Of a DNA stretch of 15,434 nt, positions 5,557 through 6,912 are shown one piece after another. Position 1 is the first letter of the stretch. Each line of letters starts with the position of its first letter. The notes under the pieces are model-generated. The model ran no database searches and was not told where the DNA came from. It was given only the letters and a program-made list of their open reading frames with translations. Both the position numbers and the translations under genes were made by a program. The DNA comes from Parcubacteria group bacterium. GTDB lineage: Bacteria > Patescibacteriota > Minisyncoccia > Moranbacterales > UBA11712. The stretch covers positions 1-15,434 of the forward strand of contig JBAZYY010000019.1 of NCBI GenBank assembly GCA_041659065.1, in the 5' to 3' direction.

Positions 5557-6912
5557 ATGGGGCGAATCTTTGGGATATTTAGGATGCGATTAAAAATAAA
5601 TTTAAAATTCGACCAAACGCTTTTCAAAATTAGCTTGATTATCTTTCTTATCATTGTGAGTTTTATCACTAGTAGCAAAGCTTCTAAGGCTGATTACATG
5701 ACAGAAGCGCAGTGCACGGCGGCCGGCGGAACCTGCAATAAGATTTCCAGTAATTGTAATCCTGACCAAGACAGCAAGGGGCTATGCCAGGGAGGTCCAT
5801 TAACACAGGGAGCATGTTGCGCGCCGAAAACAGCGGCTACGACTAAACAAGCATCGGCTGCAGGAGAAAATTGTAAAAAAATTAATGGGTCTTGTTTTCC
5901 ATTGCAGACGGAGTCAGGTTCGACGTGTGGGGATGATGATTTTAAAGGAACTATGGATTGCCCTTTCCAGGAGGGTTGCTGTGTCCCCAAAGCAGTTGCC
6001 ACGACTAATAATACTTCCCAGCCTGCTACTTCTCCTAGTACTCCTGCTAGTTCAGAAAATACCGGAGGTCTTGTTCCATGTAAAAATAATTGCACGCTTT
6101 GTCATCTGATTGTTGGATTCCATAATATTTTCACGTTTCTTCTCGGGCTTCTAATCACCGCGACCTTGCTCGCGATCACTGGTGCGGGAGTCTTTTATAT
6201 GGTCTCCACGGGAAATAAAGGGATGATGGATACGGCTAAACAGGCGTTGACCTATGCTCTCACAGCTTTTGCTCTCGGATTGGGTTCTTGGCTCGTGGTC
6301 ACGATGATTCTCACGGCATTTGGATTTAATAACGCCGGGAGTTGGTGGACATTCACATGTGATGCGACGCAAAGCCAGGGGGCTTCGAGTGTGGCGAATA
6401 ATGTTGGAACACCCGGAGTTTCCAAAAGCGCTGGTATTGGGAACGGAACATGCGGCGGCGTGGGAGGACAAACCAGCTTGTGTAAATATCAAACAAAAGA
6501 GCTGGAAAATCTTCTTAGTTGTATAAAAGGCAAGGTTGCTATGGGCGATTCCGCAAATTCAAAAATGGCGGGATATTTTATTAAACCAGCATATGCTGCA
6601 AGTACAATCAGCGCGTCCTATTTAAATGCTGAAAGCAATTTACAGGATTGCGCTGGTAACGGGTATTCAAAAGACAAATGCATTCATATGAGGAATTCAT
6701 GCCACTGGGGAGGGACTAATTGCGCTGGCCAAATTAATGCTGCTGATTTGACAGGGAGTGATCTTAACGCAATTAGGCAAGCAGCTACTGCCTGTGGAGG
6801 TTTTTCAATATATAAAGGCACAAATTATCGTGTCGATGGAACAACTTCTACGGCTAGCGATCATGGAAGTCATGTGCATGTGAGTCCGATGAATAGTTGT
6901 GGATGCCAATAA
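5557..6912 (+). CDS. Secreted T4SS-pilin-like (TrbC/VirB2-like) membrane protein. It has two N-terminal 6-Cys repeat modules and a ~195-aa Cys-rich C-terminal domain.
   Basis: 451 aa. Signal peptide is roughly MRLKINLKFDQTLFKISLIIFLIIVSFITSSKASKA; the alternative start ATG 5584 drops the first nine residues. Two repeats of C-x6-C-x6/10-C-x9/10-C-x5/9-CC lie at about 5713-5982, followed by a T/S/P linker. The two-TM pilin-like hairpin (IFTFLLGLLITATLLAITGAGVFYMVSTGNKGMMDTAKQALTYALTAFALGLGSWLVVTMIL) lies at about 6067-6327. The 11-Cys C-terminal domain lies at 6328-6909. Confidence 0.7.
   Translation: MGRIFGIFRMRLKINLKFDQTLFKISLIIFLIIVSFITSSKASKADYMTEAQCTAAGGTCNKISSNCNPDQDSKGLCQGGPLTQGACCAPKTAATTKQASAAGENCKKINGSCFPLQTESGSTCGDDDFKGTMDCPFQEGCCVPKAVATTNNTSQPATSPSTPASSENTGGLVPCKNNCTLCHLIVGFHNIFTFLLGLLITATLLAITGAGVFYMVSTGNKGMMDTAKQALTYALTAFALGLGSWLVVTMILTAFGFNNAGSWWTFTCDATQSQGASSVANNVGTPGVSKSAGIGNGTCGGVGGQTSLCKYQTKELENLLSCIKGKVAMGDSANSKMAGYFIKPAYAASTISASYLNAESNLQDCAGNGYSKDKCIHMRNSCHWGGTNCAGQINAADLTGSDLNAIRQAATACGGFSIYKGTNYRVDGTTSTASDHGSHVHVSPMNSCGCQ

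Follow-up and report, generated by a model that had tools for sequence, protein, structure and literature searches.

VirB2-like pilins, encoded in arrays of 2-11 divergent genes, are known in Patescibacteria, and both the pilins and their arrays are essential in Southlakia epibionticum (PMC12102498, PMC12857230, PMC10633639). Saccharibacteria likewise cannot grow as epibionts without pilin arrays and the type IV secretion system (T4SS) (PMC10633639; PMC12857230). Monoderm T4SSs include hydrolases of the VirB1 type, such as PrgK (pCF10), TraG (pIP501), TcpG, and CwlT; most Patescibacteria genomes with VirB2 have no recognisable VirB1, and other hydrolases may take that role (PMC12102498). The gene described here lies at 5557..6912 on the plus strand of contig JBAZYY010000019.1 from a Parcubacteria group bacterium, a complete metagenomic contig of 15,434 bp (hereafter, the window). 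It opens a conserved array of VirB2-like pilin genes, and the bacterium is an ultrasmall Patescibacterium of the Parcubacteria/Moraniibacteriota type. VirB2-like arrays and LAS peptidoglycan peptidases are both known already, and the product is a variant joining the two: its C-terminal domain has, as judged from sequence profiles and structural comparison, a LAS-type zinc peptidase fold, with Zn binding and catalysis predicted.

The gene is a single uninterrupted open reading frame (ORF) of 451 codons plus stop (frame translation), and the identical 451-aa product is deposited at NCBI as MFA5872309.1 ('hypothetical protein WC858_06370', Parcubacteria group bacterium). The JGI start call is M10 (ATG 5584), nine codons later, which gives 442 aa. 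A full-length homologue from an independent metagenome (P0003) keeps the order of the parts, with 45 % identity over 91 % coverage (E 5.5e-90), and the same order is found in three further full-length homologues from independent metagenomes (P0004, P0009, and P0011); an assembly fusion can therefore be dismissed. The suggestion that the ORF artefactually joins a pilin gene and a separate secreted-protein gene is ruled out by the continuous frame, which has no stop or frameshift near 6330, and by the recurrence of the fused architecture in hundreds of independent contigs. A preliminary description of this DNA, made from its letters, had proposed one gene with N-terminal 6-Cys repeats, a core of two transmembrane (TM) helices at 6067-6327, and a C-terminal part with 11 Cys. 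This layout agrees with the two modules found (C53-C88 and C106-C142), with the hydrophobic segments at 187-214 and 230-257, and with the 11 Cys counted in residues 258-451, and the C-terminal ending that it gave (...DHGSHVHVSPMNSCGCQ) is also correct.

Compared with the Patescibacteria VirB2-like arrays (PF18895), the locus has the same signal peptide and two-helix hairpin with a short basic loop, and the same tandem array of divergent pilins. The product nevertheless differs from the small single-domain subunit of about 100-130 aa by its length of 451 aa, as it adds about 125 aa at the N-terminal side (Cys-rich modules) and about 180 aa at the C-terminal side (enzyme domain). Its hairpin covers residues 172-268 (6070..6360, plus strand), and comprises LVPC-x3-C-T-L-C-H, TM1 (187-214), a putatively cytoplasmic loop MVSTGNKGMMDTAKQ (215-229), TM2 (230-257), and WWTFTC; the assignment relies on hhalign, on Pfam matches in homologues, and on the positive-inside and Cys distributions. 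The target itself scores 13 bits (E 0.11) against Pfam T4SS_pilin (PF18895), under the 26.6-bit gathering cut-off. Close homologues with the same core, however, exceed this cut-off at 28-31 bits (P0012 30.3, P0018 30.3, and P0020 30.7 bits), and the core of the target family (33 sequences) matches the five PF18895 hairpins of the window with an hhalign probability of 98.4 % (E 6.1e-15, 64 columns). By these comparisons, the target hairpin belongs, in diverged form, to the VirB2-like pilin family, as had been proposed from the letters.

The protein contains exactly three hydrophobic segments in a Kyte-Doolittle scan (about 20-44, 187-214, and 230-257). Residues 1-45 (5557..5691, plus strand) form, by hydropathy, a signal peptide with a basic n-region, the hydrophobic core LFKISLIIFLIIVSFIT, and SSKASKA, followed by D46; cleavage would occur near A45/D46, and the homologues keep the same N-terminal layout. 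Because this signal peptide precedes two TM helices with a basic loop between them, both appended domains are most likely on the same, outer side of the membrane, which fits the outward orientation anticipated in the preliminary description. Across the 33 homologues, the inter-helix loop carries 2.9 Lys and Arg residues on average, against 0.5-0.6 in the outer flanks; the loop and TM1 have no Cys, and these residues are concentrated in the outer flanks.

Two short motifs mark a subfamily of these hairpins, L-V-P-C-x(2-14)-C-T-L-C-H ahead of TM1 (window 6070-6105, residues 172-183) and W-x2-F-x-C-D after TM2 (window 6343-6360, residues 263-268). Through them, the hairpin has four invariant Cys and one His on its outer side, which could form a disulfide staple or a metal site. 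This LVPC/WxxFxCD signature is present in 59 of 200 proteins that combine the hairpin with the LAS-like domain.

The C-terminal domain (residues 296-451; 6442..6909, plus strand) is a 156-aa Cys-rich segment with 10 Cys, terminating in HGSHVHVSPMNSCGCQ. Searches of the whole protein and of this domain gave no usable match in Pfam or NCBIfam for residues 296-451, and phmmer of the protein against PDB sequences returned no match; the domain family is uncurated and lies outside Pfam coverage. A match to microplusin, obtained with a 13-sequence profile of the domain, was spurious. The central antiparallel sheet flanked by helices that defines the Hedgehog/DD-peptidase fold is found in the domain, and the LAS-fold structures matched include the Streptomyces albus zinc DD-carboxypeptidase 1lbu (6.8) and the Listeria phage L-Ala-D-Glu peptidase Ply500 (6.8), as well as LysB4, VldE, VanX, LdcB, VanXYg/c, VanYB, MepA, and the RB49 and T5 endolysins. 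Against the LAS comparison set (MEROPS M15A-D and M74, with 1lbu, Ply500 2vo9, VldE 9flh, VanX 1r44, LdcB 4jid, and MepA 1tzp), structural identity is only 10-21 %, and the activity of the target domain is a predicted one.

When a profile of 71 diverse family sequences was compared with PDB sequences, Hedgehog N-domains were the sole matches (E 0.002-0.08), the best one reaching E 0.002. The family consensus 'C-a-H-x3-S-C-H-Y-G-G ... A-v-D ... (E)-G-N-H-v-H-v-S-v' aligns on 'H-H-x3-S-L-H-Y-E-G-R-A-x-D ... N-H-V-H-V-S-V' of Dhh/Shh. In the target, the first motif of this alignment reads C375-x-H377-x3-S381-C-H383-W-G-G-x2-C389-x5-A395-x-D397 (6679..6747, plus strand), and provides H383 and D397 as proposed Zn ligands. 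The second, H436-G-S-H439-V-H441-V-S443 (6862..6885, plus strand), aligned with the Hedgehog 'NHVHVSV', provides H441 as the proposed third ligand and H439 as the proposed catalytic His. The Zn ligands of Shh are H141, D148, and H183 (PMC6027127). H383 is paired with Shh H141, D397 with D148, and H441 with H183, while H377 and H439 are paired with H135 and H181, respectively, and Zn would thus be held by H383, D397, and H441. Conservation is high throughout this site: S381, H383, G385, G386, A395, D397, H441, and C448 occur in 71/71 sequences, H439 in 70/71, S443 in 69/71, and H377 in 68/71, and the H-x-H of the second Zn motif (H439 and H441), aligned on the Hedgehog H-V/I-H, is kept.

Resemblance to Hedgehog does not amount to membership. 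The bacterial bacHh proteins are >50 % identical to Shh, with identical Zn and Ca ligands, and share with the target the position of the domain, C-terminal to transmembrane segments (Roelink 2018, PMC6027127). The target domain, in contrast, is 15-17 % identical in structural alignments, and the Ca-binding segment 'EGWDEDG' of Hedgehog is replaced by 'ISSISDS'. This identity is too low for a true Hedgehog or bacHh, and both are ruled out; HH_signal is also absent from the Pfam families listed for any member of the LAS-like family.

A profile search with the C-terminal domain in 1.84 billion cluster representatives retrieved 484 relatives (50 % identity clusters, E <=1e-3). Among the 219 full-length proteins with the LAS-like domain (>=200 aa, starting with Met), whose median length is 293 aa, 200 carry a VirB2-like hairpin, which in every case precedes the domain, and the domain ends <=20 residues from the C-terminus in 216. 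The fusion of hairpin and predicted peptidase thus appears, from these architectures, to be the normal home of the LAS-like domain, and to be widespread in Patescibacteria. This comparison changes two points of the preliminary description, which had suggested a search for homologues of the C-terminal domain. A decorated pilin had been called atypical, whereas in its own lineage nearly all full-length members of the domain family (200 of 219) have a VirB2-like hairpin ahead of the domain; and the C-terminal extracytoplasmic domain, rightly described as Cys-rich, had not been recognized as a LAS zinc peptidase, an identity with which the anchoring or display role put forward there is compatible. 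An endolysin or plasmid origin is not supported, as tblastn of the domain against phage and plasmid collections gave no match.

Hairpins more than 40 % identical to that of the target may carry other C-terminal domains instead, either NlpC/P60 (P0015, P0016, P0019, P0023, and P0025, and more weakly P0012, P0017, P0018, P0020, P0021, and P0027) or a third type (P0005, P0013, P0024, and P0026). The exchange is also seen at the locus itself. The same syntenic slot (solute-binding protein gene, this gene, partner gene, and pilin array) holds the LAS-like domain in five loci (L001-L005), NlpC/P60 in four (L006 29.9, L007 20.1, L011 22.8, and L012 29.4 bits, for a cut-off of 23), and the third domain type in two (L008 and L010). 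NlpC/P60 is a cysteine peptidase, and likewise hydrolyzes the peptides of peptidoglycan. The LAS-like domain is in turn fused to Glucosaminidase (PF01832) in P0176, and to the hairpin plus PKD plus a papain-like peptidase in P0181.

The doubly decorated form, with N-terminal Cys modules and a predicted C-terminal peptidase, is a minority variant according to these sequence architectures: a long N-terminal extension with at least 6 Cys, as in the target, is found in 22 of the 200 hairpin and LAS proteins. In the target, this extension contains two 6-Cys modules, at residues 50-91 (C-x6-C-x6-C-x9-C-x9-CC-x-PK; 5704..5829) and at residues 103-145 (5863..5991), and is joined to the hairpin by a Ser/Thr/Pro-rich linker (residues 146-170; 5992..6066), the length and sequence of which vary among homologues. 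A second linker, rich in Gly/Ser/Thr and also poorly conserved and variable (residues 269-295; 6361..6441), leads from the hairpin to the C-terminal domain; all four features are on the plus strand. The module, with the pattern C-x2-x-GG-x-C ... C ... C ... CC-x-K, recurs 1-5 times in relatives, and has no Pfam or PDB match. One copy is found in the neighbouring pilin gene 7745..8533 (window 7745-7950). Out of the 26 Cys of the protein, 12 belong to the two modules, 10 to the C-terminal domain, and four flank the hairpin (C175, C179, C182, and C268).

On this basis, the protein may be a surface-exposed, membrane-tethered Zn peptidase that opens the wall of its producer for a pilin-array or T4SS-related structure, as an analogue of VirB1; the balance for this reading is about even. 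The Sec signal peptide would export the N-terminus, with the two modules becoming disulfide-rich outside the cell, and the VirB2-like hairpin would insert so that its short Lys-rich loop is cytoplasmic, an orientation that is supported indirectly and that would place the C-terminal domain outside too. There, the domain, whose LAS fold and motif are apparent, would bind Zn through H383, D397, and H441, with H377, H439, and H436/D435 completing the active site. It would hydrolyze peptidoglycan peptides, most likely cutting peptide stems or cross-links. The peptidase would be anchored by a hairpin of the kind found in the array pilins, at about 30 residues from the membrane. Linkers of 25-30 residues would let a membrane-retained subunit reach only the producer's own wall, which favours local wall opening; the passage so created for the pilin-array or T4SS-related structure would correspond to the job of PrgK, TraG, and TcpG in other monoderm systems. 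The Hedgehog-type Zn motif, the NlpC/P60 swap at one locus, the glucosaminidase fusion, the coupling to the hairpin, the homology of this hairpin to the array pilins, the syntenic array, and the outward topology all speak for this reading.

The likeness to VirB1-type hydrolases is one of arrangement, namely a predicted membrane-anchored extracytoplasmic peptidoglycan hydrolase encoded with T4SS-type genes. Several of these hydrolases include an NlpC/P60 or CHAP peptidase, and it is NlpC/P60 that replaces the LAS-like domain in orthologues of the target, although the target itself has no Pfam match to lytic transglycosylase, muramidase, CHAP, or NlpC/P60. Unlike VirB1-type hydrolases, it would be anchored by a VirB2-like hairpin rather than by a single TM helix, belongs to the zinc LAS catalytic type by prediction, and is not encoded beside virB4.

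Several observations weigh against the wall-opening peptidase. No Pfam M15, VanY, or HH_signal model passes its threshold, the best being Peptidase_M15_3 with E 0.073 in 2/71 sequences, and Foldseek against PDB is weak (best E 0.17). Compared with LAS peptidases, the ten-Cys domain, besides escaping Pfam M15 detection, contains a 7-residue insertion, usually with a Cys (C389), that widens the canonical H-x6-D of the first Zn motif (S-x-H-x-x-G-x-A-x-D) to H-x13-D. LAS enzymes and Hedgehog have an acidic general base ahead of H-x-H (Shh E177; E/D-x-x-H in M15B-D); at the corresponding residue 436, Glu is found in 55/71 sequences and His in 11/71, and the clade of the target has His after D435. 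The known VirB2-like pilin systems differ from this locus in that no virB4 lies near the target: neither VirB4 nor any other T4SS ATPase or channel gene was found among the ORFs of the 15-kb window or within +/-10 kb in L001 and L003. The link to a T4SS comes from the pilin-like paralogues only. Finally, the sequence does not discriminate between the producer's own wall and a host wall as the target.

In the main rival reading, the protein is a true polymerizing or tip pilin, its hairpin being extracted and built, with the other array pilins, into a VirB2-type filament that displays the peptidase and the Cys modules on its surface or tip to bind and breach a host wall during epibiotic attack or feeding. 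Homology of the hairpin to the pilins encoded with it, and the place of the gene at the head of their array, speak for this reading, and the swaps between LAS, NlpC/P60, and the third type, together with the variable number of N-terminal modules, resemble diversification against varied targets. The preliminary description had put anchoring or display ahead of filament polymerization. In pilins of the VirB2/TraA type, both termini lie outside the membrane; terminal domains would therefore be no topological obstacle to building the pilin into a filament, and could travel along. The essential role of pilin arrays and T4SS in Saccharibacteria epibiotic growth (PMC10633639; PMC12857230) also agrees with a host-directed structure. 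Nevertheless, the two added domains, about 125 and about 180 residues long, would crowd helical packing around a core of ~100 residues, no VirB4 was found within +/-10 kb in L001 and L003, and a pilus in this lineage is hypothetical. The filament is unlikely, if still worth serious attention. Rather improbable is its bolder form, a conjugative-type filament with enzyme-bearing subunits, in which the target, as a filament or tip subunit, would carry the Zn peptidase and the Cys binding modules to the host to drill its wall, the LAS, NlpC/P60, and third-type heads being matched to different host wall chemistries.

Two other explanations concern the domain more than the pilus. The LAS-like domain might be a catalytically inactive binding module, and the protein a hairpin-anchored adhesin or sensor, for which the debated 'pseudo-active site' of Hedgehog would be a model. 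The closest profile matches are indeed Hedgehog ligands, the putative general-base Glu is replaced by His in the clade of the target, the His-Asp spacing is non-canonical, and the Cys-rich N-terminal modules resemble binding modules. In the 71 sequences, however, the three Zn-ligand positions show no variation and the two auxiliary His almost none, and the domain is interchangeable with NlpC/P60 (Pfam scores over threshold) and also fused to glucosaminidase; because of this Zn-site conservation, the interchange, and the glucosaminidase fusion, an enzyme is favoured, and the inactive module is quite improbable. The same level of doubt, or slightly less, applies to a peptidoglycan carboxypeptidase or endopeptidase with a housekeeping role in growth and division (like LdcB, VanY, or MepA), with the PF18895-type hairpin as a generic anchor without any tie to a pilus or T4SS. 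A generic anchor is hard to square with a near-exclusive coupling of domain and hairpin (200/219), and with the constant place of the gene at the head of the pilin array, next to a conserved partner gene.

The near-constant hairpin-LAS fusion, the replacement by NlpC/P60 at the locus, and the position of the fusion at the head of the array make the protein a specific candidate for the wall-cutting function that Patescibacteria pilin/T4SS systems seem to lack or, possibly, for a host-directed weapon. Such a candidate is relevant since cultivated Patescibacteria cannot live as epibionts without their monoderm-type T4SS and VirB2-like arrays. VirB2-like proteins fused to hydrolases were not found mentioned in PMC12102498, PMC12857230, PMC10633639, or further literature, the coverage of which was not exhaustive. 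H383, D397, and H441 offer testable residues in the LAS-like family, and annotation would also gain, such fusions being labelled at present 'hypothetical protein' or plain 'pilin'.

The locus consists, in order, of a metallo-beta-lactamase-fold gene, a small ORF, gyrA, a solute-binding protein gene, the target, a partner gene (256-273 aa), 4-6 PF18895 pilin genes, and an RluA-type pseudouridine synthase gene, and the whole order is shared with L001 (141 kb) and L003 (56 kb). In the window, the conserved partner gene (6927..7712, plus strand) starts 14 nt past the target stop, and encodes 261 aa with an N-terminal TM helix and an extracytoplasmic alpha/beta domain. Four more VirB2-like pilin genes follow on the plus strand (7745..10331), at 7745..8533 (two hairpins), 8587..8955, 9073/9089..9546, and 9582..10331, with Pfam T4SS_pilin E-values for the four array genes of 1.9e-18, 1.4e-10, 1.4e-06, and 6.6e-06. 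In L001, in L003, and at many GTDB loci, the orthologue is followed by the same pilin array. A scan for promoters and terminators gave scores no better than those of shuffled sequence.

A scan of one genome per GTDB species with the full-length alignment of the target family yielded 72 loci, mostly labelled Candidatus Moraniibacteriota/Moranbacteria, Parcubacteria group, or Patescibacteria group, in which the hairpin gene is usually the first of an array of 2-9 hairpin genes. Eighteen of the 72 loci (e.g., L026, L028, L036, L043, and L050) are labelled 'uncultured Bdellovibrionales', which looks inconsistent with their gene content and with other records, and these labels may be a taxonomic mislabel in the source.

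Some minor features of the array and its surroundings can be added. The pilin gene 7745-8533 is a single gene with two tandem PF18895 hairpins (four TM helices) behind one 6-Cys module. In the pilin paralogue 9089..9546, the signal-peptide-coding part includes a pyrimidine-only tract (9130-9225; CTCCCC x2.8 and TCTCTA x8.8), which translates to SPSPSLSLSLSLSLSLYLYLSLSISL; because the period of 6 is in frame, slippage in this tract would alter the length without a frameshift. The window and L003 have an intact gyrA gene (810 aa), whereas in L001 (5967-8397), the contig that carries P0003 in synteny, it is called as five fragments, probably due to frameshifts from sequencing or assembly. Further downstream, G+C rises to 0.51-0.56 at window 10000-12000, against about 0.43 elsewhere. 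The two minus-strand genes there, 10430..11449 and 11449..12555, encode a Pro/Ala-rich membrane protein and an SPFH/Band 7 protein, respectively; the rise may reflect foreign DNA, or the composition of Pro/Ala-rich coding.

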